This document shows positions 12,753-49,546 of a stretch of 64,000 bases of DNA, piece after piece. Location: the IMG/VR virus record IMGVR_UViG_3300020411_003822; one strand, given 5' to 3'. The position numbers were made by a program, and so were the translations under genes. The stretch comes from an uncultured virus (IMG/VR IMGVR_UViG_3300020411_003822) (lineage: Duplodnaviria > Heunggongvirae > Uroviricota > Caudoviricetes). How positions within the stretch are numbered: position 1 is the stretch's first letter; each line of letters opens with the position of its first letter. Under the pieces are notes generated by a model. The model did not search any database. It was given only the letters and a program-made list of their open reading frames with translations, and was not told where the DNA came from.

Positions 12753-13085
12753 ATGGTCGAGAAAGTCGATTACGAAGAAGAGGGCGTGGTAGCACGCAAA
12801 CTTGTGGAGGAAATAATGACAATGAGAAAGGAAAGGGCTCATCACAACGCTGAGATTCGCAGAATCAAAAAAGAGGAAGACGAAGCAGAAAAAGAACTGA
12901 TGGAACTACTCAAAGCAAAACCAGCGGGTAGCCAAAGCATCACCTTAGACCGAAAAGTGGAAAAGGTTCTGATTGTCGGTATTGGTGAAAGAAGTGGTGG
13001 CGGACATTTCGTGGATGCATGGTCTAAACCAATCGTTGCATATGCAAAGGACGCAAAGCACGCAAACAAATTGGGGTTGGACTAA
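12753..13085 (+). CDS. Coiled-coil hypothetical protein
   Basis: Motif-started ORF. Confidence 0.65.
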   Translation: MVEKVDYEEEGVVARKLVEEIMTMRKERAHHNAEIRRIKKEEDEAEKELMELLKAKPAGSQSITLDRKVEKVLIVGIGERSGGGHFVDAWSKPIVAYAKDAKHANKLGLD

Positions 13086-13556
13086 TGTCAGAAATTAACC
13101 GTCTGAAACTATTCCCAGAAAGTTGGGACCTTTCGCTATGGACTCCATCAATTGATGAAAATTGTCGAGTAATAGAATCACACGGAGTATTCAACAAAAA
13201 TGAGATTGTTGTCATTGAAACAACAATACCTGGACAGGACTTCCTGTTCGTCTCTAAACTGTTGGATCCAAGTGCAAGGGGTGAAATCCCTAAATCAAAT
13301 CTTGAACAATTAAACTGAACATGGCAAAGATTTGCGAAAGAGAAGGCTGCAGAACAATAATTGCAGCAGGGTCAAGGCACAATTGCAGACAATGTGCAAG
13401 GTGCCTAAGGATTTACGGGAGGTGGACAAATGGGAAAAATAACACTTCAAGTGATTCAACCATCATTAGATGAAGGAGTTTGTTGGCTTCAGCCAAGAAC
13501 ATGCGGTAACTGCCCAGCCAATGGTTGTGGTAAGTGCCCAAATGCACAAACTGAAC

Positions 13557-14555
13557 ATGGGTCTTTTTGGAAAGAAGAAGATTAGTTGGGAAGATGACGA
13601 AGATGAAGTCATCGAAGTTCCAAACGAAAGTAAGGATATTGAAGAAATACCAACCAAGACCGAAAAACCACCCGAAACAGTGAGCAAAAAGAAAGTTGAA
13701 AGCACACCCAGGGAATTTGTTGCAACTAAAACAAGCAACGAACCCAGGAGAGTTTCAACAGTCACCGAGCGCCTAAACAGGCTAAGCATCAATCAACGAA
13801 TGCAACTTATGAGTGACATAGCTTCCTCTGTAATTGAGGGGCATATTGCTGCAGCACTAATCGGGGGTTCACCTGGACTTGGAAAAACACACGAAGTAGT
13901 GGAAGTATTGCTGAAAAGGAAATACAAAAGAGTGGAACATGAAGACTACCTCATTATCAGGGCTGGAGTATCAGCCTTTGGTGTTTACAAATTAGTGGTC
14001 CAATGGGCTGAAAAGGCACTTCAAGCCAAAGCAGACGCACAAGGGAAGAAGGGCGCAAGTGGGAAACCTGCAAAGGTGAAAATCCCAATCATTGTGTTCG
14101 ATGATGTCCCCATATGGTCTGACAAAAGAATGGTAGATTTGCTAAAGGCACTGATGGATACCAGCGACAGGAGAATTGTTTCGTGGCTAACGGATAGAGC
14201 AGCAATCGATCCTGAAGAAGCGAAGAGACTGGGCAAATTACCTGCCCAAGTAGAGTTCACCGGTGGCGTAATCGTAATCACTAATGAGGAAGAGAAGAAA
14301 ATGAACTCGGCCATCCTCGACAGAACAATGTATCTCCCTATCGAAGTAACTGATGAGGAGATGATGGTCCGAATGAGAACACTCATCGACAAAGTAGAGC
14401 CAAAGATGGACAAAGTCCTCAAAAGGAATGTTCTTGAGTGGCTATTGTCAGATGAGTATGAAGGACAAGAGCGTTCAATGAGAACTCTCGTCAAAGCACT
14501 CAAACTTGCTCGCGCTAATCCCAAGAATTGGAAGCGCATGGTGCAAGTTGTGTGA
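13557..14555 (+). CDS. AAA-family ATPase
   Basis: Walker A GSPGLGKT, Walker B IIVFDD, sensor ITN, Arg finger AILDR; start at the motif ATG. Confidence 0.85.
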   Translation: MGLFGKKKISWEDDEDEVIEVPNESKDIEEIPTKTEKPPETVSKKKVESTPREFVATKTSNEPRRVSTVTERLNRLSINQRMQLMSDIASSVIEGHIAAALIGGSPGLGKTHEVVEVLLKRKYKRVEHEDYLIIRAGVSAFGVYKLVVQWAEKALQAKADAQGKKGASGKPAKVKIPIIVFDDVPIWSDKRMVDLLKALMDTSDRRIVSWLTDRAAIDPEEAKRLGKLPAQVEFTGGVIVITNEEEKKMNSAILDRTMYLPIEVTDEEMMVRMRTLIDKVEPKMDKVLKRNVLEWLLSDEYEGQERSMRTLVKALKLARANPKNWKRMVQVV

Positions 14556-14810
14556 TACTGAACATGAAGAAAAAAGTCATTGTCTTATGGACAGATGATT
14601 TGGACAGAGAGCATGCTTACCTCATTGAAGGTAAAGACCTAATTGATCCAGAAGCATTTGCTTTTCACTTGCGATGTCACAAAACAGTAAAACGAGTGAA
14701 AACAATACAATTAGAAGAAATCAGGAACGAGCATGCACCTGTAATAATTCGTTCACTGCAACCACTTCCGAAAGAATTCGGAACACTGATGAAAGAGATG
14801 AAAACTGAAC

Positions 14811-15902
14811 ATGGGACGGAAGAAGAAGAAAACCGTTGAAAAGGAGGCAGATGACGGCATCCAACACATAATGTGGATGAACCGAATATTTGCAGATGAT
14901 TTGTATGAAGACCCTAAGGGCGAAGCCGTAGAAGACAACTATTCAGAAGTGATGAATAGTTTTGTCGCTTGGGCGGCTGGCTCGCACGGCGAGGGAATGA
15001 AGGATTTACTGGAACCTTCGCCAAGCAAGGATTACGAGGTACAAATACAGGGAGACATAGGCGATGACACTTTCAAAAAGTTCGCTATGGTCAGAAGCTT
15101 TTTGCGATTCAAATCAAGTCAAGATGAATGCGAAGAACACTTTTGTAACGCAGAACAGTTGGTAGAATGGGTCGCCACAAACGACTCCAAACACCGACTT
15201 CAAGGGGGAGATCTAAAGGAATTCGAGTTGATCATCCCACACATAACTGCGAATGCCGAAGAAATCGGAATCACATTTATCGAGGGGCAACCCCTTGAAG
15301 AATCAATCATTGACAATGCTACAGAAGCAACTCCTGACACAAATGCTGAAGAGGTACTCGAAGCAGCATTGGAGAAGCAAGAGCAAATCGCAAAGGAAAT
15401 TGAAGAAAAAGCAGAAGAGGAGCAGGTCGAACCTGAACCAGAATCTTCTGTTGAAGAAGAGAAAGGAACTGAAACTGAAGATGAAACCGAGGAAGAGCAT
15501 GTGCACGGTCCAAACTGTAATCATTCTCACGAAGAACTCGAAGACGATGAGTATGTGCACTTCAAGTACGAGGTCCTGGAAAGTCCACAAGAGGAAGACC
15601 CAAGAGATAGTGACCCCGAATGGGGCCTAAACGGGGATCCTTTACCTGTGGTAAGAGGAAGCGAAGGATTGGTTTCATGGTCTGCTTTAGCAACTGTTGT
15701 TGAAAAACAGGAAGGCATTGAAGACCTAATCCAGAAGAAACCAGATTTCGACAAAATGTTTGCATCTGCAATTGAAGAGATGCACAAAGATGGAGTAATG
15801 CAGAATGGCCGATGTCTAATTGACGCTATATTGGTCGTGCTGGAAATAGATCCACGAATGGCGCATCGAATAGTAGCAATCTACGAACAGGTGCAAAACT
15901 GA
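14811..15902 (+). CDS. Highly acidic hypothetical protein
   Basis: 363-aa ORF, Glu-rich, HVHGPNCNHSH. Confidence 0.75.
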   Translation: MGRKKKKTVEKEADDGIQHIMWMNRIFADDLYEDPKGEAVEDNYSEVMNSFVAWAAGSHGEGMKDLLEPSPSKDYEVQIQGDIGDDTFKKFAMVRSFLRFKSSQDECEEHFCNAEQLVEWVATNDSKHRLQGGDLKEFELIIPHITANAEEIGITFIEGQPLEESIIDNATEATPDTNAEEVLEAALEKQEQIAKEIEEKAEEEQVEPEPESSVEEEKGTETEDETEEEHVHGPNCNHSHEELEDDEYVHFKYEVLESPQEEDPRDSDPEWGLNGDPLPVVRGSEGLVSWSALATVVEKQEGIEDLIQKKPDFDKMFASAIEEMHKDGVMQNGRCLIDAILVVLEIDPRMAHRIVAIYEQVQN

Positions 15903-15904
15903 AC

Positions 15905-16336
15905 ATGGCACTCGCAGAACCATTTAGCGAAGAGAGTGAGGCATTTCAATGGAAGAAATGCAATACAACAAGCCAATGCTGCGTATCATGTGGTAATTCG
16001 ATGCAGAAGGGGAAAATAGCCCTTCTAATCAAAAATGCACACGACACCACAGAAAAAAAGCAGTATCTTTGGCTATGTTGCAGATGTATCTACCGATTTG
16101 CAGAAATAATCAAAGCGGGAATAGAAACAGATAGGATTTACCTACAAAAAAACAGCAGTACAGGAACTGGATGCATTCATTGCGGTGGAAGAGTCACCAA
16201 AGGACAGATTCACCTCAAACTATGCAATGCAAGCGATAGTATTCGAACAAAGAAAGAATTGTGGATTCACAGAAAATGCAGAATCCCATTTGCGAACAAA
16301 ATCAAAAGTAAACTTGTACTGCCACAGAAGAAATGA
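15905..16336 (+). CDS. Tandem zinc-finger protein (PARP-type-like)
   Basis: Two repeats of CxxCG....KG....W(L/I)(C/H)xxC. Confidence 0.6.
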   Translation: MALAEPFSEESEAFQWKKCNTTSQCCVSCGNSMQKGKIALLIKNAHDTTEKKQYLWLCCRCIYRFAEIIKAGIETDRIYLQKNSSTGTGCIHCGGRVTKGQIHLKLCNASDSIRTKKELWIHRKCRIPFANKIKSKLVLPQKK

Positions 16337-16639
16337 AATGGTAGGTATCAATAAGACTGAACATGGGGGTACAAGACGCACACGAACTGTTTGGGCGCGG
16401 GTTGTTACATTGGAACTTACTGGTTCAAAGAATTGACTTTGATGAATTCAAAGATATTCTTGAATCAGTAAGAGGATTCCGCATTTCTGAGGAATACGCC
16501 TTACAATGCTGGGAACTATTTCCAAATCCAATGGAATTGAAGTTGAAATTGAAAGGAGAATTTACAAAATTCTCGAAATTAGCAACAATGAGAACAAGTG
16601 GCTTTGGGATCCATAGAGATCTTACGCCATAAACTGAAC

Positions 16640-17758
16640 ATGGATGACTTTGTACACGATGCAAGGAGCTGTGGCTGGTGCAAGAAAGCATTAGCCGCAA
16701 AAAGGAGAAAGACATCACCTGTTGGTCCAGAATGCGAAAATAGCCTGCCTGAGCAGTGCAATGTCGCATTACTGAATCTAACACAACATTCTTCTGAGCA
16801 TGGCCATCCAGGCACAGCAAGTGAAAATGCCCAACGAGCAATTGACAACTATTTCGGAGATGAAATAGATTTGGTATTGACATTTGACATGTGGTTTTAC
16901 AATGACATAAGCGAGGCAACAATCAATGCTTTTTGGAATGATGATGGAGATCTAAAACATATCCATTTCATCAATCCTGACGGCGGAGACGACTTGCTTG
17001 ATGAAGAAGATAGGCCATTTTACAACAAAGAAGAATTGACACTACGAAGAAGAGTAGCAATGATGCTCGACAAAAGAACCAAGACGAAAATAGTCGTCAA
17101 GCACATCGATGCAGATTGGATTTGGTTCTTGAATGGAGGCCATTACAGTGGTCCAATATGTTCAAGAAGAAATCCAGAAGAAGTCGCAAAGGAAAATGGG
17201 TGGGATTATCCTATTCGAGTTTGCGGATATTGCAGCCTGATGGTTGCAGATTACGATATGATCGATGAGGCAGAAAGGATGACGGAGAAAATCGAACAAC
17301 AGAAAAAACAAATCTGTTGTTGTGGTTTAGGAGATGCAATTTACAAGAAACTGATAGACCAGTATGATGCGTCAGCATTACGAGAAAGTCTTGATGTTCG
17401 AATGGCAGACATCACCCGCCACGAATGGTTTAGAGAACATAACGCTGGCTTTTTGGGCTTGTTAGAACAATACACAGTTGATGGACATGACTACGAATAC
17501 CCTGGCTTGGTAAAACATGAACAAGTTGGAGAAGTGTTCGAAAATGGCGGCTACGAAATTGAATTCGATAGCGATTTAGGCCAAGACATCTTGGTAAACA
17601 ACATACTACCTATTTTTCTAAGAGGCCTAACAACAGGGTTCGATGAAAAGTGGAATTATGTGGTTGGTAAATTAACACAGCAAGAATATGGTGCCTGGAA
17701 AGACTGGATGACAGCAGTAATGCGACCAGTCGATTTTGACGGACCATATCTACTGAAC
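16640..17758 (+). CDS. Hypothetical Cys-containing protein; no stop before the motif at 17752
   Basis: Motif start at 16640; continues in frame into the 17759 gene. Confidence 0.6.
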
Positions 17759-18235
17759 ATGAGCAGAACAGTTGGACGACTGGAAAGAGCAACGGTGATA
17801 CCCATATTGAGGTTAGACCGTGACCCAGAACCACCACACTGGCAATCAGAATTTCCGGATTTACGCAGTATGACTGCTAAAATCGATACAGGCGCGAAAT
17901 CAAACACACTGAGAGTAGAGCAATTAGATTACAAGGAAAAAAGCGGCATTCAATATGTAGCTTACAAATTAGGGGGCGAATGGAGCCCCTGGATAGAGTT
18001 TGACAGAAAGGTGGTTAAATCATCAAACGGATTTGCAGAGAACAGGCCATGCATATTGTGCTGGTTTTCTCTTGGAATCGGTGATGAGCGGATCACGCAC
18101 GAATATGCGTGGTTCACAATTACAGAAAATACACAAATGAGAAACCCAATTTTGATTGGTCGAGACACACTTAGAGCAAATCGATTAGCAGTAGAGGTGT
18201 GGGAATCATTCAAATTGGGGAGACTCAGGGACTGA
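17759..18235 (+). CDS. Retropepsin-like (RimK/LysX-associated, 'ATP-dependent Zn protease' family) protease
   Basis: AKIDTGAKS...KSSNG...NPILIGRDTL; begins at an internal ACTGAAC-ATG. Confidence 0.75.
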   Translation: MSRTVGRLERATVIPILRLDRDPEPPHWQSEFPDLRSMTAKIDTGAKSNTLRVEQLDYKEKSGIQYVAYKLGGEWSPWIEFDRKVVKSSNGFAENRPCILCWFSLGIGDERITHEYAWFTITENTQMRNPILIGRDTLRANRLAVEVWESFKLGRLRD

Positions 18236-18237
18236 AC

Positions 18238-18486
18238 ATGGACGGACAGATGAGAGGTTCGGAACGGTTTACCTATGATAAATCATGGGAGGAAATTGAA
18301 GCAAAATTAGACGAGGCGGAAAGATTGCAAAACGCACACTACACTGCATTGCAAAAAGGTGGATTAACTCGAAAACAAAAGTTACACCACATGAAGCAAT
18401 ACAAAGGATTGGAAGGAGCGGTTGCAACTCTTAGGTGGGCTCTCGGAGATCCACAATTCGACCCACTGACAGGAAAGAGGGATTAG
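18238..18486 (+). CDS. Hypothetical helical protein
   Basis: Motif-started ORF. Confidence 0.65.
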   Translation: MDGQMRGSERFTYDKSWEEIEAKLDEAERLQNAHYTALQKGGLTRKQKLHHMKQYKGLEGAVATLRWALGDPQFDPLTGKRD

Positions 18487-18743
18487 ATGAGTAGAATACC
18501 CCTTGATGTCAAAGTAGGTGACAGAGTTACCAGCACCCAATTGAAAAAGCACGGTTTAGTAAGAGATACTCCCTTGCACAAAGGAAGTAAAACTTGGACT
18601 GTGGTTGAAATCAATGAAGGTACGACAACAATGTCAGGGTTTTCTGGAAAGAAGAAGAAAGCACCAAGAGAAATGAAGATTACCCGCATTGTCTTACAAG
18701 CACGAAATGGAGTAAAAACCAGAACATTCTGGTACAACTGAAC

Positions 18744-19295
18744 ATGGCCTTAGACAAGCGTAAGCGAAGGAAGGTAAATTCTTTGGTGCAGAAAATCTCT
18801 GCTCAAAGAAAATTGATTCGGACTGGCCGAATAGAAGGCAACCGAGAAGAGGAAAGAGAGATGTGTGTAGAAATCTCACATCTGATTGGCAATGCGAAAT
18901 GTGATTTAGGCATGCCAGCAGAACATTTCGAGCACAATCTAATTGACTTTGACACAGGATTGATTGAATGTCACTCCCTACCCGTCAAGGAAAAGGGGGA
19001 ATGGAAAATCAAGAGAGATGAAAAGAAGCAAAACGAACTCCGAATGGAGATCGAGCATCTTCGAAGTGGCAGAGCGGGCATTTATGTCAATCACGCCACA
19101 GGTAAGAGGATTAGTGAAAAGCGATTTTTGAAATTGACGCCTAAAGAACAAAAAGAATGGACAAAAGGCGGCATCATTACTCAAACATTAGTTCACGCTG
19201 ATAGAATTATTGCTGAAGAGAAAGGTCAAACAACAAAGGCCTTAGAACTCGCAGCATTAAATGGAGAATTCACACTCTACCAGGCGAAGGAATAG
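18744..19295 (+). CDS. Hypothetical protein
   Basis: Motif-started ORF carrying the YxHxxTGxxI module. Confidence 0.7.
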   Translation: MALDKRKRRKVNSLVQKISAQRKLIRTGRIEGNREEEREMCVEISHLIGNAKCDLGMPAEHFEHNLIDFDTGLIECHSLPVKEKGEWKIKRDEKKQNELRMEIEHLRSGRAGIYVNHATGKRISEKRFLKLTPKEQKEWTKGGIITQTLVHADRIIAEEKGQTTKALELAALNGEFTLYQAKE

Positions 19296-19306
19296 AGATA
19301 CTGAAC

Positions 19307-19600
19307 ATGGTTGGATATATTCCCAATAAGAGGAAGGAAACCAAAGGGGAAAGAGAATTTCCCTATGAGGAAGGAGATAACTTCGATGCAATAGGACACG
19401 GTTCATCGTGTCCTGTATGTGAAGCAAAATGGTACGAGGACTGTGAGCCAGGAGAACCTGGTTTCTACTGTGAAAATACAGATGCACGGGGCCAGCACTA
19501 CGAAGCAAGTTGCGAAAAGTGCGGTTATCAAGCAGTCATAGAACTGAAAGCCGTAGTAGCTTCACAATCTTGGAAAACTGAACATGCCGAATTGGTGTAA
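19307..19600 (+). CDS. Zinc-ribbon protein
   Basis: CPVC...CEKC. Confidence 0.6.
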   Translation: MVGYIPNKRKETKGEREFPYEEGDNFDAIGHGSSCPVCEAKWYEDCEPGEPGFYCENTDARGQHYEASCEKCGYQAVIELKAVVASQSWKTEHAELV

Positions 19601-20297
19601 CAATGAACTCGTGATAAAGCACGAGGATGAGGAAAAAATACAATCTCTCGGAGAGATTGTGAGGAAATACATTGAAGGGGGGGAAGAAGGTAAGTTCTTT
19701 GGACACATTCTTCCAGAACCTGAATATGAGGAAAATGAGAAAGGCGGCAGATACGAAAATATGCCAGCCTGGTGGAATTGGAGAATCGAAAATTGGGGTA
19801 CTAAATGGGATGCAAGTTTTGGAGACAACACTTCAGGCTATTCTCCCGTGAAAGGTTCAATGATTGGACGGGATGGATCCCTATGCTTGAACTTCGATAC
19901 TGCCTGGTCTCCACCATTTGGAGTGGTTGCAGAACTAATTAAACAAGGATTTCATGTAGAACACACTTACATGGAGCAAGGAATGGATTTTTGGGGTTGG
20001 GAAATCAACGGAGAAGTGATCGCAGATTCAGAAACACTTGTGGGTATGTCAGAATACTCTGTAGACTGTTTTGGTAACACCTATGCAGAATGGGATGAAC
20101 TCCCAGACGGAGCAATCGGAAAAGGTGTAGTCCAAGAAAAAGAAGTAGAGTTTGCTGATGGCAACAAATATACCTTCAAGAACTACGAGCATGACTGGGA
20201 ATTTGACGAAGAAAGATCCAAAATAAAGGCCCAACAACTCGGCATAACCGAGGAAGTTTGGGAAAGATGCAACCTCGCAGAAATTAGAGGAGGCTAA
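19584..20297 (+). CDS. DUF1281/YubB ferredoxin-like domain protein
   Basis: MPNWCNN...WNWRIENWGTKWD...FDTAWSPP. Confidence 0.8.
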   Translation: MPNWCNNELVIKHEDEEKIQSLGEIVRKYIEGGEEGKFFGHILPEPEYEENEKGGRYENMPAWWNWRIENWGTKWDASFGDNTSGYSPVKGSMIGRDGSLCLNFDTAWSPPFGVVAELIKQGFHVEHTYMEQGMDFWGWEINGEVIADSETLVGMSEYSVDCFGNTYAEWDELPDGAIGKGVVQEKEVEFADGNKYTFKNYEHDWEFDEERSKIKAQQLGITEEVWERCNLAEIRGG

Positions 20298-20312
20298 ATG
20301 AATAAACTGAAC

Positions 20313-21326
20313 ATGACGCAAATGACACTACCAGTTATTGCAAAGGAGCCAGTCCGCAATTTTACATTGGGACAGGGCAAGGAGAAAATTCCACGCAGAG
20401 AATTTGACAAAGGAATTGTAAGGGTAAAGGAGAACAACAAGACAGAACCCAATGTTACTGATACCGTAGAAGGCTGCACAGGCGGTTGCTACGGTTGTTA
20501 TGCCGCAAGAAGCATGAAAGTAAACATGGGTCGGAGAAAGTTCCACCTCCCAGTAATACAATCGTTGGTGCCGGAAATAGTTCAATACGACCTAATGAAA
20601 ATGGTCGAAAAGAACCCGCGCCTTGATTGGCTGAGAAATGGAGTATTTGGAGATCCTTCCTTAGATTGGGAAAGCGCAGCACAATTGTCTGAAGCTGCAG
20701 GGATGATAGGAATCAGAACCGTAATCATCTCGAAGTTTTGGACATTGCCAACAGATGAGCAACTTATCCGAATGGCATTAAGCGGCGCAATCATACATTT
20801 CAGCCTGATTCCAGGCTACGAATGGAGTCCAGACCTTGTAATCGGCAGAGCCGAGAAAAACAGAGTCAGGGACATTGTCAGTAAACTCATCGCATTTGAT
20901 GAAATGACAAGGCCGAGCGGTGCTAAAGAAGCTGACTCGGTAATCATTCGAATCTGCAGTGCGAAATTTGATAGAAGTACAGATGAGGGTAAGAAAATGG
21001 ACGACACTCAGAACTTTTTCACAGCAATGTGTGAGAGTCAAGGGTGGAGAATACTTGAAACACCCTGGAAGTTCGAAGGGTCATCTGACCCTCGATGGAA
21101 TTACCTCGACCATGAAGCAATGGGACGCACAAAATCCTATTCGACTGGTGAAGCAGGTAGAAAGAAGACAGCAGGGCCGATAATTTTCGATGGCGACAAA
21201 TACGCAGATTGGGAGACATTTGCAATTGCATGCGATACAACATGCGATGTATGTCCTAATCAATGCGGAACAACCGTTGAATATCCTATACAAATATTGG
21301 GAGCAAAAGTGGCAACTGTAAACTGA
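20313..21326 (+). CDS. Radical-SAM-like / phage gp88-like Fe-S protein
   Basis: CTGGCYGCYA (CxxxCxxC), R.GVFGDP, C-terminal CxxxCxxCxxxC. Confidence 0.6.
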   Translation: MTQMTLPVIAKEPVRNFTLGQGKEKIPRREFDKGIVRVKENNKTEPNVTDTVEGCTGGCYGCYAARSMKVNMGRRKFHLPVIQSLVPEIVQYDLMKMVEKNPRLDWLRNGVFGDPSLDWESAAQLSEAAGMIGIRTVIISKFWTLPTDEQLIRMALSGAIIHFSLIPGYEWSPDLVIGRAEKNRVRDIVSKLIAFDEMTRPSGAKEADSVIIRICSAKFDRSTDEGKKMDDTQNFFTAMCESQGWRILETPWKFEGSSDPRWNYLDHEAMGRTKSYSTGEAGRKKTAGPIIFDGDKYADWETFAIACDTTCDVCPNQCGTTVEYPIQILGAKVATVN

Positions 21327-37131: not shown

Positions 37132-37339
37132 ACATGACTAAGCGAAGAGTCGTGAAGGTTGAAGGAGCTGTATTCAGTAAGATTGCCGGTTTAATGATGG
37201 AGGCTCACAAGGAGCACGAAATGGTCCGAGATGAGACAATTGGATATGTGATTGCCCGTGATCCAGAAATCACGGTAGGAATGGTGCATTATGTGATAGA
37301 TGCGATGTCGCATGCATTCGCGCCAGCAGATGACTGAAC

Positions 37340-39530: not shown

Positions 39531-39532
39531 AC

Positions 39533-40123: not shown

Positions 40124-41348
40124 ACACACGGAGGCGACTAAACATGACCGACTTTGAACGGATAGCATCCGAGATGAGAGAGGAATGGCTGGCGAAGCAC
40201 GAACCAGATGAAAACGGCTTTTGCCCCACATGCAAAGGAATTGGGCTGAATTGTATTGCAAACTCAGGGTTTTCCCCTGATCAAATAATTGCGGTGGAAC
40301 AAACCACATTAGAACTTCAGCGTTCAATTCGAACTTTAGAAAAGTTGGGCATTAGGGAACTCAAAGAATTGAAGTTTGCTCTAAGAAAAGCAAAACTGAA
40401 GCTTTACTCAATGCAAAACGAAAACAGATGTACTTGCGACAAAGAATACGGGGAAGAAGACCCAGATTGTGTAGCGTGCCTAAACCAATGGAGAAACGAA
40501 AGGTATGGGCCAGATATACACGATGTGGGCTGTGGATGCCATGAATGCGTCCCAGGCGGATTTGTTATCACTGTATACGATGGAGTGAATGTACGAGAAT
40601 ACTGAACATGTCATTAGTTGATGATATATTGGATGCGCATTCCAAACGGGATAGCGCAACGGAAACGATGGACACACACGGAACCATCATCTATCACGGA
40701 GAAGAAAGAATAGAGAAAAGATTTGGAAAAATCTGCTGGGCAGTAGGAACCTTTGAGGATTTGAAAGGCATCCACAACGGCCAATGGCAAGTTTTGAGTG
40801 GCAATGAAGTCGTGAGAGATATTACCTATGGGGAAGATGAAGTGACAATGGTTAGTGGGCTTGGCGAAGAACTCATAATCCCATTAGAAACAAAAATCTT
40901 CTATGAACCGTGGGAAATGGACAGAGGATCTTACATTTTCAAGATTGAGCAATTTGAGCGCCCCTGTAAATTGATGACGGAGTGGGATGAAATCACACCG
41001 AAAACTGAACATGAGTCTGATAAATGCTCTAATGAGGGAACTGGAAGAGGAAGAAGATGAAATAAGTACTCCCAGGTTGAAACAAATCAGAAGGTTTGCA
41101 AGCAACATGAGGGTCGGTCTATTTTACGATCATTCTGGATATGTAGAAGTCATGTACAGTTATGAAACGCCAGTGGCTATGAAGAAGTTGGATTTGGACG
41201 GTATGGTGACTGACAGATTTAGAACTGATGTAAAATGGAGTTCAACCACAACAAGACACATCAGTAAATGGGGGTGCTTGGGTGCTCCCGAAATAAGTCA
41301 AGACGAATTAGACCGATTCAACCCCTGGGAATATATGAAAAACTGAAC

Positions 41349-42095
41349 ATGGACGAAATTATTTGTCTGAAAAAAGGGACCTACGCCACTTTGGATAGGT
41401 CAGAGGTAGATTTTGGAGGCCTTCGTGTGAAGGTCACAGACAACTACATTGAAGGTTTTGGATGGAATCTGGAACTGGTTGAAGAAGATAAAGGCACATT
41501 TTGCTCGTATCTTCATGGAAGATACACTTACGAACTGGCAAGACACCTTATTTCAATGATGGAAGAGGAACTTGGATGGCAGTTCCATCTTGATGAACCA
41601 AGAGATTACATGAAAAACGGAATAGAGGTTCCTGAAGGAACAATCCTATTGTCAGGAAAAGAAAGAGCATTGTTCCATTTAGAAAATGCAATCGCATGTT
41701 TGAAATGGGACTTTGAAGAAGATGCAAAAACAAATGCAATTGAAGCACAACAACTCCTCAAAGGAGTCATAGCAGATGCACCTAAACTACTTGCTAAGTT
41801 TGCGGATTTGGTAGAAGGAAAAGATTACATCGACCTTGAGAAGCGAACAGCCAACAGCAACATGATAGGGCACCCAGAAGGAGTTGAAGAAGGGGACATC
41901 GTAGAATATCGATACTACCCTGACCCAAAAATGCACAGAGCAATTGTAGCATGGAACGCTGAAGAAGGAAGATATGTTCTTCAGACCTTTAGGAGAGAGG
42001 AAGTAAATCAATTCAAGGCAGATGGAATATCTGACTATTGTGATTTGGATCAAGCAGATAAGATAATCATTCTTGGTTCAACTCACCAAATGTAA
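41349..42095 (+). CDS. Hypothetical protein with a YopX-like C-terminus
   Basis: EGDIVEY...IVAW...IILGSTHQ. Confidence 0.55.
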   Translation: MDEIICLKKGTYATLDRSEVDFGGLRVKVTDNYIEGFGWNLELVEEDKGTFCSYLHGRYTYELARHLISMMEEELGWQFHLDEPRDYMKNGIEVPEGTILLSGKERALFHLENAIACLKWDFEEDAKTNAIEAQQLLKGVIADAPKLLAKFADLVEGKDYIDLEKRTANSNMIGHPEGVEEGDIVEYRYYPDPKMHRAIVAWNAEEGRYVLQTFRREEVNQFKADGISDYCDLDQADKIIILGSTHQM

Positions 42096-42330
42096 CTGAA
42101 CATGTCTGCATGGACGCCACGAGAGAGGGCCAATTACATGGCGAGAGTGATCAAGGAAGGAAGAAACACAAGTAGCAACAGGACATTTAGCGGCTGCTTG
42201 GAATGGAGCGAAGAGGAGAACAACGAGGTTCTCCGATTACTATGGGATAAGGCAAAAAGGTCTCCAAAGTTGAAAGAGAACCTTTTCAAGTACATAAGTG
42301 AAGATGCCTTCGACCAATTCAAAACTGAAC

Positions 42331-42771
42331 ATGTCTGATGCAGATGCAAAGATGGCGGAGAGGGCGGAGGCTACAAGAATAGCAATCGCACACAGTACGG
42401 GAACAAGTGGATACACCAAAGCATGTGGAATTAATCTACAACTTCTTTGTACAGATGGAGTATTGGGAGTTGCTGACGCAGCACAAGCATATTGGCTCAT
42501 CGACATTGTTGGGAGCTTGAAGTACGATGCTGCAGCAGCATCGTACATGGAAGTAGCGAAAAAAGAGCGCAGATTGATTGTATGCAAACTATCAGTAAAT
42601 GAAGATAGAACAGCAACATTCACTGCTCGCGGAATGGATCTTGAGGAAGATTTCTACACTCAAGAGATTCCATACACGAATTTCCCGTTAGAGGAAATTA
42701 CACTTTGGTATAACCTGCACGACCATGCAGGTTCAGGATACACAGTTTTGTATCTGCCAAGTGAACACTGA
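42331..42771 (+). CDS. DUF6876-like protein
   Basis: TDGV...AYWLIDIV...QEIPYTNFPL...LPSEH. Confidence 0.7.
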   Translation: MSDADAKMAERAEATRIAIAHSTGTSGYTKACGINLQLLCTDGVLGVADAAQAYWLIDIVGSLKYDAAAASYMEVAKKERRLIVCKLSVNEDRTATFTARGMDLEEDFYTQEIPYTNFPLEEITLWYNLHDHAGSGYTVLYLPSEH

Positions 42772-42773
42772 AC

Positions 42774-44009
42774 ATGACAAACGAAAGTGAGTCGGGCTCT
42801 ACAGATGTAGAGATGGAAGAGTTTGATGACTCCACCCCAGTGTGGGAAGTGCATCAACAAGCAGTCGTGGCGCTTCAAGCGCACGAAGGAGAAGGTTTCG
42901 AATCTCTGACAAGAGGTGGGAGAGACGCAACGGTGGTAGATTGGGATTTTAACCCACTTGTTCTGCCCTCGTATGTTCATCTCACTGAGCATCCGTCAGA
43001 TCAAGAAATAGAACCAGGATTTTTTACGGTCACAAACCGTAGCGGAAATGTAACATCTTTCCAAATATTCAATCCTGACTTGAGAACAGAGGAGCAACCG
43101 ATTGGAGCAGTACTTGGGGAAGTTTCGGAGAGATACGCAGCAGTGTCATATCCGATTACATTCGCCCCATTCGCAGAAATGTGTTCTGCTAAAGGGTGGC
43201 CGTGGGAAATCACTTGCTATGATCAAGGCAAAGTCGCCCGAATGGACATTGTCGTTGCTGACGCAGCGGAAATAGGAACCAACAAAGCCAACCGTAGGGT
43301 TGGTGATGTCTACAAATATGGACTAACCATTCACAACAGTTTGGACGGTTCAAGTGGACTTAGAGTAACAGCTTATGCAGAGAGACTCGTATGCACCAAT
43401 GGAATGGTAGCAATGAGAAAGAGAAATCTATTTTCTGCAAAACATACTGCTGGGGCTATCGGTTCCATTGACTTTGAGAAGTTCGCAAGAGAAATCGGAG
43501 AAATGGCTCTTACTGTGAAAAATGAAATCTTGCTCGTAGAAAGCATGAAAGGCATGAAATTGACTGATGAACTGTTCGACAAATTACAAGTCGAAGCAGC
43601 ACGCAGAGGAATCATCACAATGCCAAGAGTGTTTGAGATTACAGATCCTATCACTGGAAAAGTAATTGATTACGATGTCAAAGGAGGACACGGTTGGAGA
43701 ATTGGTCGAGAAGGCTGGGAAAACCCAGACCGAGACTGGGTAAAAGTAGAAGGTGAAGACATTGGAACCCTGTTCCAAGCATACCAAATAATGACTGGTG
43801 GATTGACCCACAAACCTGTATGGGATGGGCCAGCCACCTGGAATGGTGAAAAGCATTCCAGTCTAAATGGTTACACTTTGAACTTGAAAACATTAGAAAA
43901 GAGGCTTCATTCCGTTCACATCTTATTGAGCGAAGTAATGAGTGGCTCTCTAATTTTGGAAGAACTACCAACCTCCGAGCAAAAACTCGGAATTGAGTTG
44001 GTACACTGA
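42774..44009 (+). CDS. DUF932-family protein
   Basis: HNSLDGSSG...RLVCTNG..KH. Confidence 0.8.
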   Translation: MTNESESGSTDVEMEEFDDSTPVWEVHQQAVVALQAHEGEGFESLTRGGRDATVVDWDFNPLVLPSYVHLTEHPSDQEIEPGFFTVTNRSGNVTSFQIFNPDLRTEEQPIGAVLGEVSERYAAVSYPITFAPFAEMCSAKGWPWEITCYDQGKVARMDIVVADAAEIGTNKANRRVGDVYKYGLTIHNSLDGSSGLRVTAYAERLVCTNGMVAMRKRNLFSAKHTAGAIGSIDFEKFAREIGEMALTVKNEILLVESMKGMKLTDELFDKLQVEAARRGIITMPRVFEITDPITGKVIDYDVKGGHGWRIGREGWENPDRDWVKVEGEDIGTLFQAYQIMTGGLTHKPVWDGPATWNGEKHSSLNGYTLNLKTLEKRLHSVHILLSEVMSGSLILEELPTSEQKLGIELVH

Positions 44010-45656
44010 ACACATGTTAGTGCATAGAGCAAAAGACGGATTTAGGAGATACCCCTACGCTAAAGCGGAAGGGGATTGAATGACGCAGAAGTTAGCGTAC
44101 AGATTTGAGTTGAAATGCATCTTCGATGGTGTTATTTTCATTTGGCCCCCTGAAGAGGAGCCCCCACTTGAAGGCAACAGCGAATATGATGCATTAATGT
44201 CGAGGCCAATCATGTGTCCTGGTGATCCAGAGAAGATGATTCCTCCACACATAGAATTTGAGAAAAGTGACATGATGGAACCACGAGATATTGTGGAAAT
44301 CCTTAATGTCGTAATTACGGAGAGATAAAACATGGAAACGGCAATACCCTCAGTACCAAGAGCGATGGTAGTAAGGTGTGCCAATTGCCGCGCATTTGGA
44401 GTAATGACTCGCAAAGAACCACTGGAACTTTGCCCCGAAGGGCGAGTATTGGTGCAGTTCTTTTGCAGATGTGGTAAAGGAAAAGTGGATTTTGATAATC
44501 CATACTGAACATGACTGGAGATAATGAACCGGTTGAAGAGGGCATCGATTTAGATGCAATTAGACAGGAACTGGCGGAAGGCCAAGCAGAAATTGATGAA
44601 ATAGGCGAGCGTATTTCTCGATGGGAAGATTGTGAACACTGCGATAGCGAAGGTAATGTGAGATACGGGTCAAACCACGACTCCATAGAGCCTTGTGTAG
44701 TTTGTGAAGAGGAAATTGATGAACTTAGCGAGCGTATTACTCAATGGGACAAAAAACACAGAATGATGTGTCCCGAACCAGCGAGCGGTGCTGCAGGGCA
44801 CATTCATTGGCTCTTAGCCCGTTACACGGAATTGCTCGATGACATTCATGGAGAGAAATGTTTCACAGAAGAAGGGGCAGATCATGGACCTGAACTTGTA
44901 GCAAGAATCAGGGCATTAGGTCCTGATTATGTGAAGTGCTTTCTCCCTGCTGAATTATGGGACGACCAATTTCAAGACTGAACATGGACAAAGAGTTCAC
45001 GATTGTATGCTCCTACTGTGGGCATGAATGGAGAGAAGACGATGGAATGCCATGCAAATGTGAAGAATGTGAGGGTTGAACTTGGGTACAAGGGGCTATC
45101 GTCACAATCCAAATAGTAGCCAGGTAAAGTGTCCAGAGTGCGGTAAAGTGCAACGGATTCAGCGCAACACCGCCAAATGCCGAATATGCAAAACAGAGGA
45201 ATCTCGATGTCATCATATTCGAAACAGATGGACAAATGACATGCAACTATTGCTTTCATACATGAAAACTGAACATGAGCGAAGGATTCGTTTGTGACGA
45301 GTGTGGCAGACAAGCTACAAGGGCAGAAGGCACCAATTGGTGCGTAAACTGCGAAAGGGAATATCAAGCAGGGCTGAATGAAGCCATGCGAGTCCCCTGG
45401 CCGAGAGGAGTCGATTAAATGGACATCGGAAGATTAGAAAATAATGCACTGGAGAAAGCAGTGGAACTAATTCACAAAACCATATCAATGGTGGTAAATC
45501 AATCTTCAATTGCATTGACATTTGAAGGTCCCGATGAGATAGAAGACCTCTGGAACGCATGGGAATTGATTCAAACCTTCGGAGATTTACACGATAACGA
45601 AGGAATGTTTACCGAATTTGCATCAATTTACAATAGCGACAGAGGATACTGAACAC

Positions 45657-45902
45657 ATGTCTACGACAAAAGAGAAAATCATGGCAGTAGCAAGGAGAGT
45701 ATTGAGAGAATACGAAACCATGTCTGCATCAGGAATCGCTGAAAGGGTGAATTCTGAAACCAGAGATGGAGTTCATGTAGCCAGAATGGCAGGGTTGCTA
45801 AAATCAGCACCGGACATCGAACAGGTGCCGAGAACAAGAGAACCCATTGAGTGGAGACTCAAGGGGAATGTTGATGCGACTGAGACAGGTGGCGAAACAT
45901 GA
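45657..45902 (+). CDS. DUF3860-like winged-helix protein
   Basis: RDGVHVARMAGLLKSAPDIEQV..W. Confidence 0.55.
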   Translation: MSTTKEKIMAVARRVLREYETMSASGIAERVNSETRDGVHVARMAGLLKSAPDIEQVPRTREPIEWRLKGNVDATETGGET

Positions 45903-46270
45903 GCAGAATGATGAATCTGATACTGAGAAGAATAGCGGGAATAATCCTGGTCGGGTTTGCAATCGCCTATTGGGTTGCCAAATGGCAAGGGTATGATCTA
46001 CCAGGAATTGATTTGCCGCAATGGATGCATTCACCTGCATGGTGGACAGGAATAGCCGTAGTTGCAGTATGGGCTTGGTTGCCTGTACTGGCACCTGTGG
46101 GAAACAGAGAGGTATCTCTTGCACAAGAGATGCCGAGACAATTTCAAAGCCCTCAGCAAATTGAAAACGAGCCATTTGAAATGAATGGCATGTGGTGCAT
46201 AATTTGGAACGGGCAATACATGGTTTGGGACTCACAAAACAATCAATGGGTCCCCTACCGTGGAAACTGA
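45899..46270 (+). CDS. Small two-TM membrane protein
   Basis: Two hydrophobic segments. Confidence 0.6.
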   Translation: MSRMMNLILRRIAGIILVGFAIAYWVAKWQGYDLPGIDLPQWMHSPAWWTGIAVVAVWAWLPVLAPVGNREVSLAQEMPRQFQSPQQIENEPFEMNGMWCIIWNGQYMVWDSQNNQWVPYRGN

Positions 46271-47932
46271 ACATGGACGAAGAATTCACCGTATGGAGAA
46301 TCCAAGAAATCGTCTTGGCCGAGGAATGCCCTCTCCAAGACAGATTTGACAGAGAAGAATTGTGGTGTGACGATGTGGACTACACGGGTGGTCGCCTCAA
46401 CTTCATCGCTTTTGTGAGCAATTGGCCTCACCCCGATATTTCGGCAACAGAGGCGAAGCAATTGAAGGAGTACCTCGAACGAAAAGTGATTAACGAAGCA
46501 GAACGCCAATATCCCAATGGCGCAAGAGCGCGAATTTACTTGCCCAGTGGCCCCATAGAGGCGTATTGGCCGGATGAAGACTGAACATGAAAACTGAATT
46601 GGCATTAACATTCAACACTGGAATGTTTAGGCGGGACGAGCCGTTGGTGATCTATTCATCCAAACATCTCGGCCCAGTTACAGCAGAATCAACAATAGCA
46701 AGAATGATTCACCCCAAAGGGAGAGGCATTGGCTTTGCAAAGGCAAAGGATACAGGAATGATTGGAACCTTTCCTTTGGAACGACTGGATTATGCAGTAA
46801 AAATGACAATATCTCCCGAAATGTGGAACTTACTATCGGAGATAGACACGATTCTTGACAGTATTCAATCGCACAATGAAGCTTATCGAATAATTGGATT
46901 GCTTGATGGCGAAGGGTTACTGGAAAAACACAAGGAAATCAAAACAATCAGGGATAAAGCCAAAAAAATAGGTAGAGATATTAACCTTGATTACGGAGAC
47001 TGAACACATGTCCGAAGAAAAGACAAGTTTTCGTGAATGGATTGAGAGATTCTTGGAGAAAGTACCTGACGATGCGCTGATAAACTGCTGCATCGAGATG
47101 TCGTATTCTCAAGGAGCAAAAGGCGGTAAAGAGATCATGGTGACTGGTCTGCATCCTAACGATGCAGATTGGCAAAAGAAATACCCAAGCAGTAAAGATT
47201 GTTGGGGTGGAAACCCAGTAAATCGCGCCAAAGACTGAACATGTCGAGCGAAATTGACGACAGTGAGGATGGATTCGTTTGCCCACAATGCGATAAACGA
47301 TTCCAAGAGGGAGAATGTATGCCTGCAGTTGCTTTAGCAGCGCAAATCGGAAGAGAAGAAGATGTTGTATTATGTTCAATAAGATGTCTGGTAGGCTTCT
47401 TGAAAGAGCACGCAACTAACTGAACATTGAAAAGGAGAAGCATCTTGGAGAGAATTGGGCCGGAGTTTCTGATTGCTTTCATATCTTCTTCAACTTCAGG
47501 TGGTGGTTGGAAGTTTGGGGTAAACTTCCTCCTCTCCGGTCCACCTTAACTTAACATGGCAGACGACTTGCTGAAGGGAGTAGACATGGATTCTACATGG
47601 AGTTGGTACGGGGACTTGGAAGAGGTCAATCTCTTTACATACAGAGGGGAATTTCATAATGACAATTCCATTATGGTAAAAATAGTAAACGAAGAGGGGG
47701 ACAAATTGAAGGTCCGTTTTCACATTCAAGAGGTAGAGATCCTTGAAGTAATCAAGGCAGCTACCGAGAAAGACGAACTACTTGAATTACTGGACAACAT
47801 TTACGGCCTCCTTGAAGGAATGGCAGATGGAGCGGAAGACACAGAGGATTACGATGATAGCGAGAGAATCTTTGCAAATGCAAGAGATCGTGCGCATCGT
47901 GCCTGGGCTATCGCAAAGAACCTAAACTGAAC

Positions 47933-49201
47933 ATGAAGTTTTACACAGATGAAGGCAAATGCCTTAGGTGTGGGAAGAAACTTTCAGATCAAACATCAAT
48001 TGATTCTATGGTGGGTCCTGAGTGCAAAGGTTTGCACTGGAACCCCTTGAATACAGTAAAAACCGTTGTGAGCATATCGAAGTATTTGGATCCGAGAGGA
48101 ACCGAAGGCGATTCGGAGAGGAATCCAAGAGAATTTATGGAAGAAATGGAAGCAGACATTTTGTTTGCTTGCAAAAGCAAGGAATACACTTGGGAATCCG
48201 ATAATTACACAGGAAAACACGATGTAACGGAATTTGCTTTCGATGTCGAAGTATGGGTAAGAGCAGAGAAATTCTGCTCAATAATAACCTCAGGTTATGA
48301 AGATAAATTCAAGGAAGCAGTGGAATTGTCTCCAATCATCAAGATTGGGAATTTGAACAGTTGCCAAAAGCAACCGAACTTCGAAAATGTGGAAACACAG
48401 ATAAGGTTCGAATGGGTGAAATTCTACGGAATCGTATTTCCTGACGGAAGTATGAGAAATGGAATAATTGAAGCATTGGATCTGAATGAACAGGAATTTG
48501 CAATGATACCGAACAGTTTTGATGACTGGAATGAAAAGATATTGTCTCCATTCAAAGTGAATGTTAAGAGAATTTTATTTCAAGAGGAATTCATTGTAAA
48601 AATGAAAACTATGAAATTCATCTACTGTGATCCAATCGTAAATGCGATTACAGGCGATGATTTAGATTACAAGGATAATTACCCAGCGTGCCATGAATGG
48701 GAGTTTAGTGATAATCCGAGACTCGTAGAAGATTACTGGGCCGAACAAGTAGATTACAATCACGATGTCTATTGTGATGCAGTATTGTGCATAAACCATC
48801 TCCATTTCCTTCCTAATCTGAAATACAGAAAAAAGGAAATAGACGAATACGATGATGGACTGACAAAATGCATCCTTCGACAACTGGAGAAATGCTACTC
48901 GGAATACATGGAAGGTATGCCATACTGGTATGACGACAGTGATAACTTTGAATATTTCAATCAAAGAGTTTGTTGGTATGCCGCCAGGACAATCGCAAAG
49001 AACATCGGGCAATGTATTGGAAACATCACCCAAAATATGCCAGAAAAACCAGAGATAGAATTGACGAATGCCTTTGAAGGATTGAAAGATAAGGACAAGT
49101 ATTGGTCTTGGGTAAAAAAACTGCGGGAATACGATTACTACGGATTCGGCAGCGCGGATACAGATTTCCTCAATGCAATAAAAGAGGGAGCAGAACTGAA
49201 C
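47933..49201 (+). CDS. DUF6011-type zinc finger fused to an unknown domain; no stop before the motif at 49195
   Basis: CLRCGKKLSD..S....GPEC. Confidence 0.65.
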
Positions 49202-49546
49202 ATGTCAGGAACACCGTGGGGTAATCCCAGTGGAGTAGAAGCAGTTGCACCTGGAATAGACTGGGTGATAACAGGAAGGCACGGAGGATTGCGTGTTTCA
49301 AACGCAATCGCCAAAGAGGCAGGTATCAATCGATTACTTGCGTCAATGGGAGGAATGGGTGTCGGTTTAGCAATATACGAACGCCAGCATTGGTGGTTCG
49401 AAGAAGACTGTGCGTGGAGCATAGCAGTACTATTGCTACCGCAGCATTTCTCCGAAGAAAGCCAACAGGCAGCCGAACAATGCGCAGAACTTTATTTCCC
49501 TGAAGCATTTGCATTAGTCAAAGAACACAGGGAGGGTATTGAATGA
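49202..49546 (+). CDS. DUF7007-like protein
   Basis: TPWG...APGI..V.T..HGG...WFEEDCAW; starts at an in-frame internal motif. Confidence 0.65.
   Translation: MSGTPWGNPSGVEAVAPGIDWVITGRHGGLRVSNAIAKEAGINRLLASMGGMGVGLAIYERQHWWFEEDCAWSIAVLLLPQHFSEESQQAAEQCAELYFPEAFALVKEHREGIE

Follow-up and report, generated by a model that had tools for sequence, protein, structure and literature searches.

A start-codon-abutting heptamer as a possible RNA-level gene-boundary mark in the gene array of an uncultured marine virus

In some viral gene arrays a short fixed word precedes the start codons, and the question raised by the locus described here is what such a word does and how it relates to the Shine-Dalgarno (SD) sites found before other genes of the same array. 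The locus lies in a 64,000-nucleotide stretch of DNA from the uncultured virus IMGVR_UViG_3300020411_003822 (Caudoviricetes), hereafter called the window, most of which is taken up by a 52-kb array of genes that all point the same way. About four in five of these genes are led by the word (A)CTGAAC directly abutting the ATG (full form ACTGAAC-ATG) and generally lack an SD site, which the remaining genes tend to have. A first-pass annotation, made from the sequence alone, had noted that the word and SD sites appear mutually exclusive and had inferred that each copy of the word marks an mRNA 5' end and that the array is expressed as mono- or bicistronic units in an archaeal setting. Based on the analysis below we propose, tentatively and with a little less than even confidence, that the word delimits genes at the RNA level and is specific to the virus, in the form of a TATA-less extended initiator that would be read via a viral TFB-like factor.

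The sequence CTGAACATG occurred in 79 exact copies, all on the + strand, when 1.10 were expected (100 shuffles, largest count 4), and no copy was found at the - strand genes that flank the array. An A stood at position -7 in 75 of these 79 copies and positions -10 to -8 were A-rich. For the family ACT[G/A/T]AACA there were 104 copies on the + strand (86 ACTGAACA, 10 ACTAAACA and 8 ACTTAACA) and none on the - strand. Starts were assigned with our own gene model of 105 genes, in which a start lacking the word was placed at the first ATG, GTG or TTG of the open reading frame (ORF) without regard to SD sites; 82 of the 105 modelled starts were led by the word, 71 by the exact form and 11 by a form with one mismatch, which left 23 starts without it. 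The mismatch was always at -4 (ACTAAAC, ACTTAAC or ACTCAAC), and these variant words always followed a gap of 19-722 nt, often right behind a GC hairpin. Further upstream, no position from -60 to -12 carried more than 0.12 bit of information (79 window sites), and a TATA box near -26 together with a B recognition element (BRE) near -33 was absent both here and at the corresponding sites of a related virus, G001, described below. The ordinary archaeal promoter implied by the first-pass annotation was thus not borne out.

The energies of SD pairing were calculated against an assumed anti-SD sequence, GAUCACCUCCU, which is identical to the 16S 3' terminus GGATCACCTCCT in a Poseidoniales genome. 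All nine SD runs that had been named in the first-pass annotation, purine-rich and 5-10 nt ahead of the start codon, were present at the starts given for them, with duplex energies of -6.4 to -14.7 kcal/mol. Over positions -20 to -1 the mean energy was -6.23 for starts without the word (n = 23), -3.15 for starts with the exact word (n = 71) and -4.82 for those with one mismatch (n = 11), as compared with -3.78 for internal in-frame ATG codons (n = 379) and -3.96 for random positions (n = 2000); the energies at starts without the word were lower than those at exact words (Mann-Whitney, p = 2.5e-5) and than those at internal ATG codons (p = 7e-5). When only the motif-free positions -22 to -8 were used, motif-led starts could not be told from random positions (p = 0.98), in agreement with the claim that these genes carry no consistent SD, and the starts without the word were still stronger (p = 0.004). 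Energies of -7 or lower were found at 10/19 starts without the word vs 6/82 motif-led starts (Fisher's Exact Test, p = 2.2e-5), a count that was made after refining five starts, two of which were picked knowing the SD. The comparison of anti-SD energies that had been suggested as a check therefore separated the two gene classes, and the claimed exclusivity held as a statistical contrast and not as an absolute rule: six motif-led starts have an SD-like run (4629, 12156, 35621, 39177, 40144 and 50953) and about nine starts without the word lack a good SD. In G001 the trend was weaker (6/25 starts without the word vs 3/55 motif-led starts at -8 or lower, Mann-Whitney p = 0.12), the class without the word including many doubtful ORFs in that genome.

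The word is also tied to the ends of genes. Its TGA served as the stop codon of the upstream gene at 34 to 39 junctions, the number varying with the gene model, and upstream stops lay inside or just before the word at 66/84 junctions in the window, 52/58 in G001 and 10/10 in L003, a relative whose word holds no stop codon. The G at -4 was retained at junctions even when TGA was not the upstream stop, and junctions with 2-nt spacing showed no terminator structure. Among the 86 ACTGAACA copies, 11 read ACTGAACAC and lacked the ATG; most of these stood at gene ends, with examples before gaps at 4975, 35517, 40119 and 47419, and three had an ATG two bases further on, of which 45657 and 47008 are likely to be true gene starts. 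Such ATG-less ACTGAACAC copies show that the word marks gene boundaries and not starts alone. One copy directly precedes a tRNA-Arg gene (Table), and at four places a copy lies 20-68 nt ahead of an SD-led start, much like a short 5' leader (8150>8177, 25649>25689, 36282>36307 and 44005>44080).

Five copies were located within long ORFs, all of them in frame (17753-17761, 37586-37594, 38234-38242, 49196-49204 and 54551-54559), and two of these coincide with the borders of Pfam domains (Zn_protease and DUF7007, with ATG codons at 17759 and 49202). This suggests, as far as the domain borders can tell, either fused cassettes or internal starts that would yield shorter proteins. Elsewhere the longest ORF began upstream of an in-frame ATG abutting the word (13470/13557, 24793/24898, 26294/26354, 27990/28065 and 41268/41349), and automatic gene callers would probably set such starts wrongly.

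RNA was examined in four marine metatranscriptome runs from one study (three samples), in the form of assembled contigs that carry no strand or end chemistry; they were compared with positions 30001-50000 of the window, and the results given here are from the 32 longest of 82 pieces. A piece had to extend across a junction by at least 31 nt to be counted as crossing it, and expectations were obtained by random placement (20,000 trials). None of the 32 pieces crossed a motif junction, against 15.5 +/- 2.7 (minimum 5) for random placement, and 7 of the 64 piece ends lay at most 3 nt from the C|A junction, where 1.0 would be expected (P = 0.0004). The first letter of three pieces was the A of the abutting ATG itself, at 33968, 35084 and 41349, and two more within 2 nt of it (one at 41351); the start at 35084 belongs to a variant word behind a gap, without an upstream gene. 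Two contigs from one sample ended at 36147, the C before the ATG. Since the repeated word is far shorter than the 31-letter word of the assembler and should not break contigs, we take the RNA to be truly discontinuous at the junctions. Two contigs spanned the SD-led start 36011 within the unit 35621-36147, which together with the absence of crossing fits the proposed mono- or bicistronic units in part. The three starts at the A likewise agree with the claim that the word marks mRNA 5' ends, in assembled contigs of a single study and with ends that cleavage of a longer RNA would produce as well. The same holds for the wider claim of a role at the RNA level, for which the copy before tRNA-Arg, the short leaders before SD-led starts and the contigs all speak and with which cleavage is equally compatible.

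Some features of the contigs stand apart from the junctions. One of the two contigs ending at 36147 goes on after the C with sequence matching 35970-35984 and so jumps back by about 180 nt, to approximately 35968; a graph artefact, a circular RNA and a tandem duplication in a related strain are all conceivable. Four contigs, from four runs, all end at 43741-43750 within the DUF932 gene and clear of any motif copy, for which a strain difference, an RNA end and the assembly are candidate causes. The skip joint 42361>44589, seen in one contig (side 20), was disregarded as weak, as were the loose ends at the tRNA. Bins lacking cover and low shares in the runs were given no weight.

Relatives were found with a profile of the family of a polymerase protein encoded beside the array (see below) and comprised marine metagenome loci and one IMG/VR record, G001. 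Scans of IMG/VR with the single DUF932 and polymerase proteins gave no match, and a scan with a profile of an LRAT-like core protein found G001 only. The G001 genome is complete (128,784 bp with direct terminal repeats) and encodes tail-fibre proteins, a Cpn60/TCP-1 chaperonin, RusA, the LRAT-like protein, the polymerase protein and a serine recombinase; RusA is encoded in the window as well, and the core module beside the polymerase gene is kept in all relatives. Each virus has its own word. In G001 it is ACTGACC-ATG; a 40-kb array there holds 61 copies of CTGACCATG on one strand, a single copy lies on the opposite strand, and the logo has the same shape as in the window, with A at -7, variants at -4 only and at most 0.10 bit from -40 to -11 (61 sites). 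The word of L009 is the same as that of G001, L005 has six copies of ATTGAAC-ATG, and in L003 ACCGCTC-ATG stands ahead of ten consecutive genes. Common to all four words is a pyrimidine at -1 followed by a purine at +1 (CTGAAC|A, TTGAAC|A, CTGACC|A and CCGCTC|A), in each case with C at -1 and A at +1.

The genes behind the words are largely different. Only 15/105 proteins of the window array had a homologue in the G001 array (25-61% identity) and their order was scrambled, and by this comparison the array is hypervariable and its flanks are conserved. In the one homologous pair that was checked (window 33968 and G001 approximately 92,576), each gene was led by the word of its own genome. Four Poseidoniales genomes showed no enrichment of ACTNANCATG relative to the reversed control (68 vs 75, 55 vs 37, 36 vs 40 and 22 vs 33), and a host-wide signal was set aside on this ground. 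Because the words differ between viruses, the two homologues checked follow the word of their own genome and the Poseidoniales genomes are unenriched, the factor that reads the word is most probably a viral gene product, as judged from these sequence comparisons. A tRNA-Lys gene lies near the array start in both viruses (window 8069-8156, G001 114,785-114,871) with a motif variant directly after it, in G001 AAACTAACC-ATG; this tRNA was the sole DNA-level alignment between the two leader regions (79% over 95 nt), and a conserved non-coding RNA in the leader was therefore rejected. A tRNA after the motif was sought in L005 and none was found. A guide or antisense RNA was rejected as well, the complement GTTCAGT being present once on the + strand of the window (31876, within a gene) and the few other-strand copies in G001 all lying within tail genes.

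The array is flanked by two genes that bear on the identity of the reader. In the window and in G001 alike, a gene for a TFB/TFIIB homologue is found upstream of the array and points away from it, the syntenic G001 copy being 27% identical to that of the window (E = 2e-20). The window protein matched the Pfam TFIIB repeat with E = 1.6e-5 and contains two cyclin-fold repeats, and a profile of its family matched the TFIIB core (PDB) at positions 100-287 with E = 3.6e-10 and Pyrococcus TFB with E = 2.5e-4. Ahead of the cyclin repeats, where a zinc ribbon and a B-reader would be expected in this family, ten sequences had in common the invariant cysteines C23, C32, C68 and C71, with a spacing that is atypical for a zinc ribbon, and a conserved ETSDTKFD. 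At the other end the array is closed by an RNA polymerase A''/Rpo1C-like gene in the window and in L003, L005, L009 and G001, that is, in every relative with an array seen. This protein has the Pfam domain RNA_pol_Rpb1_5, archaeal Rpo1C/A'' proteins head its PDB matches (E = 3e-13), its best genome matches are archaeal, and it is 1001 residues long vs about 390 for the cellular subunit; by this protein the closer relatives (P0002-P0010) are 45-56% identical. Both proteins support the archaeal flavour of the setting that the first-pass annotation had assumed. No DNA polymerase family appeared in the domain results for the array and flank proteins of the window, which is part of a genome.

In the mechanism that we propose, RNA units would begin at the A of the abutting ATG, giving leaderless mRNAs for most array genes, and such mRNAs would need no SD site. 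Genes without the word would be second cistrons or would lie behind the short leader of a motif-started unit, and it is there that SD sites would be used. The signal would be an extended initiator, with a conserved A at -7 in front of the C at -1 and the A at +1, read in a TATA-independent manner by the cellular archaeal RNA polymerase after reprogramming by the viral TFB-like factor and perhaps by the A''-like subunit too. With each gene carrying its own compact start signal, genes could be shuffled within the array. An initiator is favoured because the pyrimidine-purine step and the A at -7 are kept, the TFB-like and A''-like genes flank the array and the words are virus-specific; the RNA ends would then be primary transcription starts, the TFB-like protein would be the candidate reader and the host would presumably be an archaeon. 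Furthermore, units that follow the hairpins at 12088-12122 and 35539-35591 must restart within 30-40 nt, a stretch in which a hairpin and a motif variant are all that is found.

Several observations weigh against this proposal. The region from -60 to -12 holds no TATA/BRE-like information, and we know of no archaeal promoter that functions without TATA/BRE. A promoter alone predicts read-through RNA, yet none of the 32 pieces crossed the terminator-free junctions; the two same-sample contigs ending at the C of the 36147 junction look as if cut, the clustering of upstream stops inside or before the word in the window, G001 and L003 fits RNAs that end there, and the RNA evidence consists of contigs of one study and of 32 of the 82 pieces. 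These ends could instead be made by cleavage, with few promoters, long precursors and a sequence-specific endoribonuclease (viral or host) that cuts ACUGAAC|AUG, each cut freeing an upstream RNA that keeps its stop and a downstream leaderless mRNA, and with the tRNAs released from the same precursor. Such cutting would explain why ends were seen to either side of the junction (5' at A three times, 3' at C twice), why no junction was crossed despite the missing terminator structure, why motif copies without ATG stand at gene ends before gaps, why upstream stops are placed as they are in all four viruses, why the arrays of both the window and G001 have tRNAs embedded next to copies of the motif and why nothing promoter-like precedes the motif. 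However, a search of the array and flank proteins at E <= 0.001 recognised no ribonuclease family but RNase H, the strong terminator-like hairpins in the array demand new starts at motif variants, the conserved flanking factor is a homologue of an initiation factor, and both 3' ends come from one sample, with one of the contigs continuing with other letters. In addition, 17/93 sites lie within the upstream ORF and five are in frame in long ORFs, where cuts would leave mRNAs without stops; because a start signal tolerates such sites whereas cutting would be costly there, the initiator is preferred over obligatory cutting, which we consider rather unlikely. A refitted polymerase that stops and restarts at every junction, on the DNA, would reconcile the facts behind initiator and cleavage, which is speculation; genes would in that case be plug-in cassettes. 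That the array uses an undescribed promoter type or stop-start system, in which the heptamer would be stop context, RNA boundary and start context for the host polymerase with the viral TFB and A'', seems to us doubtful, although conceivable.

Two further explanations leave RNA ends out of account. The heptamer could be purely translational, a substitute ribosome-binding site or a termination-reinitiation context (TGA-AC-ATG) on a polycistronic mRNA, and the constant abutment on ATG, the use of its TGA as upstream stop and its anticorrelation with SD sites are what one would expect of such a signal. SD pairing requires spacing between the SD and the start codon, and the zero spacing here leaves no room for SD-like pairing. 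Moreover, copies precede a tRNA and frames of 3 to 11 codons, variants stand behind gaps of up to several hundred nucleotides without an upstream ORF, the L003 word has no stop and in G001 the TGA is the stop at only 5/65 sites, the contigs do not span junctions, and the word varies among related viruses and is unenriched in candidate host genomes; we therefore regard a purely translational role as very unlikely. The word could also act on DNA as a crossover site for the exchange of accessory genes, as in an integron, its place at gene starts being a by-product. The scrambled order of the few proteins common to the window and G001 arrays between conserved flanks, the in-frame copies at domain borders, the G at -4 that is kept where TGA is not the stop and the serine recombinase of G001 all go in this direction. 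On the other hand, the strict linkage to strand and ATG, the SD contrast and the contig pattern indicate expression, a recombinase was found neither within the window array nor next to it, and one ambiguous contig is the sole strain breakpoint mapped to the motif. The junctions, of 2-15 nt, also differ from the attC-like sites of at least 57 nt that an integron has between its cassettes, beside an integrase gene. A boundary for cassette exchange is compatible with an expression signal and, as an alternative to one, appears most improbable.

The coordinates of the array, the flanking genes, the junctions and the SD sites are collected in the Table.

Table. Features of the window, with junction counts for two relatives. 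Energies are for pairing with the anti-SD sequence (kcal/mol).
Feature	Coordinates	Strand	Basis
One-way gene array, about 105 mostly small genes	3901..56050	+	own gene model
Span of the 79 exact CTGAACATG copies	4623..55141	+	exact count vs shuffles
TFIIB/TFB-like protein, 324 aa, divergent from array	1711..2682	-	Pfam, profile, alignment
RNA polymerase A''/Rpo1C-like protein, 1001 aa, convergent with array end	56040..59042	-	
Window junctions: 93 motif sites; upstream stop inside word 34, just before 32, ORF runs past 17			
G001 junctions: 65 motif sites; upstream stop inside word 5, just before 47, ORF runs past 3			
L003 junctions: 10 motif sites; upstream stop inside word 0, just before 10, ORF runs past 0			
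Motif junction; TGA is stop of gene 33528-33965, ATG 33968 starts Dam-like methylase	33962..33970	+	
Post-gap variant CTTAAC-ATG (ACTTAAC-ATG from 35077)	35078..35086	+	
Motif junction	36142..36150	+	
Motif junction	41343..41351	+	
Motif copy with tRNA-Arg(tct) 34890-34964 starting 2 nt later; the motif's ATG opens a 3-codon frame only	34882..34964	+	
tRNA-Lys(ttt), TTAACACTAAAC motif variant, AGGTGG, SD-led ATG 8177	8069..8179	+	
Composite: CTGAACATG with 10-codon frame ending in TGA 25685-25687, AAGGAGG, ATG 25689	25649..25691	+	
Composite: CTGAACATG with 11-codon frame, GGGAGGG, ATG 36307	36282..36309	+	
ACTGAACAC-ATG with 22-codon frame whose TGA directly precedes SD-led ATG 44080	44005..44082	+	
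In-frame internal motif, residue 374 of 531-aa ORF; Zn_protease domain (409-523) behind	17753..17761	+	Pfam
In-frame internal motif, residue 424 of 537-aa ORF; DUF7007 starts at residue 425	49196..49204	+	Pfam
SD GGGGT, start 13085, energy -6.4		+	
SD GGGAGGTGG, ATG 13430 (51-codon ORF within unit from 13321), energy -14.7	13405..13432	+	
SD GAGGG, ATG 18487 directly after stop 18486, energy -9.2	18462..18489	+	
SD GGAGGGG, GTG 22920, energy -9.8	22895..22922	+	
SD GGTGGAG, start 36011, energy -10.9		+	
SD GGGAGGG, ATG 36307, energy -13.3		+	
SD GGGGT, start 38653, energy -7.0		+	
SD GAAGGGG, ATG 44080, energy -9.1		+	
SD GGGAGGG, ATG 49543 overlapping stop 49546, energy -11.1	49518..49545	+	
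13-bp hairpin + T6, GC hairpin, ACTCAAC ahead of ATG 12156	12088..12155	+	read from sequence
Hairpin 35539-35583 + T8, second hairpin, ACTAAAC abutting ATG 35621	35539..35620	+	read from sequence
Two tandem hairpin + T-run sites, terminator-like, array end	55498..55565	+	
TTCAAACG(G) sites	window 830-838, 59719-59727, 62670-62678 (-); G001 72907, 73399, 78203 (-), 124193, 124916 (+)		

Strong hairpin and T-run sites on the + strand were few, about five in 52 kb (5566, 12088, 35539, 55498 and 55531), and an intrinsic terminator (GC hairpin with a T-run) is not present at each unit end. The letters around 35539 describe a terminator-like end with a new unit straight after it. Sigma-70-like sites in the array were no more numerous than in shuffles, Rfam returned the two tRNAs and nothing else for the array, and near-identical DNA was sought in plasmid and phage collections, none of which matched the window. 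The coding strand of the array has a strong purine skew. At its 5' end there are long hairpin-rich stretches without convincing ORFs (3483-3900, 4980-5382, 5527-6248 and 7882-8068), in which the word is present in tandem, for example as CACTTAACACTTAACACAAACTAAAC and CTATACACTTAACACTAAAC, and for which Rfam gave no match.

The Pfam and PHROGs results for the array included at least seven DNA methyltransferases, Mom, PAPS reductase and a SprT-like protein, and the further domains DUF932, DUF6876, DUF7007, DUF6011 and DUF3860 (three times); judged by these domains the cargo is of an anti-restriction type. The methyltransferases are dense in the region 21688-34885 (genes at 21688, 26354, 29436, 31500, 32587 and 33968), with Mom at 49855 and PAPS reductase at 51896 lying beyond it, and the array as a whole resembles an anti-restriction arsenal.

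Other repeated words were observed outside the array. A second conserved word, TTCAAACG(G), is located 9-29 nt upstream of the starts of core (non-array) genes in the window and in G001; it is identical in both genomes, unlike the array word, and could be a start signal for genes of a second class. In G001 the region of approximately 115,600-116,100 (array strand), between the TFB-like gene and the array, contains three to four tandem repeats of about 150 nt, each with TATTTACTACTAAC, which may be primary promoters or an origin. An unrelated archaeal metagenome locus (L079) has 24-29 copies of TGGTTGAATGC on one strand in 20 kb, probably a repeat array of another kind.

To our knowledge, no cultured archaeal virus brings its own polymerase subunit together with a TFB. 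For the question of how such a virus redirects transcription the word now gives a handle at the sequence level: seven nucleotides that can differ by one base from relative to relative (A or C at -2), a pair of genes on the flanks as candidates for the reader and public RNA libraries in which the units can be seen. The word also fixes the annotation of start codons, many longest-ORF starts being wrong (as in the first two pairs listed above), and it would explain how a hypervariable array of methyltransferase and anti-restriction genes can be reshuffled without loss of expression. Should the RNA ends prove to be cuts, a new system of mRNA punctuation would be at work instead, with leaderless mRNAs as its products.

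The nearest analogues in function are the gene-junction signals of RNA viruses, the short promoters of jumbo phages and the poxvirus late initiator, and for the rival reading the punctuation of mRNAs by cleavage. Short words that delimit mRNAs at gene boundaries and change among relatives are known from non-segmented negative-strand RNA viruses and nidoviruses. The transcription-regulating sequences of nidoviruses have a core of 6 to 7 nt, according to the available part of PMC10152751. The likeness to the present case is a short virus-specific word at each gene boundary, and the difference is that those are RNA genomes copied by RNA-dependent polymerases whereas this is a DNA virus; that ACUAAAC and ACUUAAC resemble coronavirus core words is regarded as a coincidence. 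Punctuation by cleavage is familiar from mitochondrial tRNAs, and in E. coli MazF makes leaderless mRNAs by cleavage. Cuts at start codons that give leaderless mRNAs and tRNAs in the same precursor would be common ground, but the motif here is 7 nt long and virus-specific and no nuclease apart from RNase H was recognised among the array and flank proteins.

The jumbo phages phiKZ and AR9 have non-canonical polymerases with split beta/beta' subunits, short promoters and SD leaders on their mRNAs. On the reading proposed here they would resemble the present virus in that very short start-site motifs suffice for a virus-modified multisubunit polymerase, and they differ from it in their bacterial hosts, in motifs that lie apart from the start codons and in mRNA leaders with SD sites. 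In poxviruses the late and intermediate promoters have an initiator, TAAATG, fused to the start codon, with an A/T-rich upstream element, mRNAs with 5' poly(A) heads and a complete polymerase of their own. A compact initiator for each gene that overlaps the ATG and virus-supplied transcription factors would be common to both cases on the proposed reading, but poxviruses are eukaryotic cytoplasmic viruses, and a whole polymerase, an A/T-rich element upstream and 5' poly(A) heads were not seen in the present virus.

Among marine viruses, Philosof et al. 2017 described Tara 'group D' scaffolds of uncertain nature with a thermosome, a resolvase and an archaeal-type RNA polymerase A, and defined magrovirus group D by DNA polymerase B and as being without a morphogenetic block (available part of PMC5434244). 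G001, with its Cpn60/TCP-1, RusA and A''-like genes, and the window, with RusA and the A''-like gene, share the marine origin and much of this gene set; unlike group D as described in that part of the text, G001 has no match to DNA_pol_B (PF00136) and carries tail-fibre genes. Membership of group D was set aside, there being no family B DNA polymerase match in G001. The words promoter, motif, upstream and leaderless are absent from the available part of PMC5434244, and the gene-start motif of these viruses is unmentioned in the available parts of PMC5434244, PMC11706807 and PMC5069720. A literature search found no paper that mentions the motif words.

A further comparison is with archaea themselves. 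In Sulfolobus and haloarchaea the first cistrons are leaderless, beginning at a terminal AUG without SD, and internal cistrons are led by an SD complementary to the 3' end of the 16S rRNA; the known leaderless genes of archaea depend on a weak initiator together with BRE/TATA some 26 nt upstream. The SD contrast between motif-led and other genes in the present array matches this habit, whereas a strict 7-nt word at -7 to -1 that is fused to the ATG, specific to each virus and repeated, with no TATA/BRE, at about 80 units in 52 kb does not.

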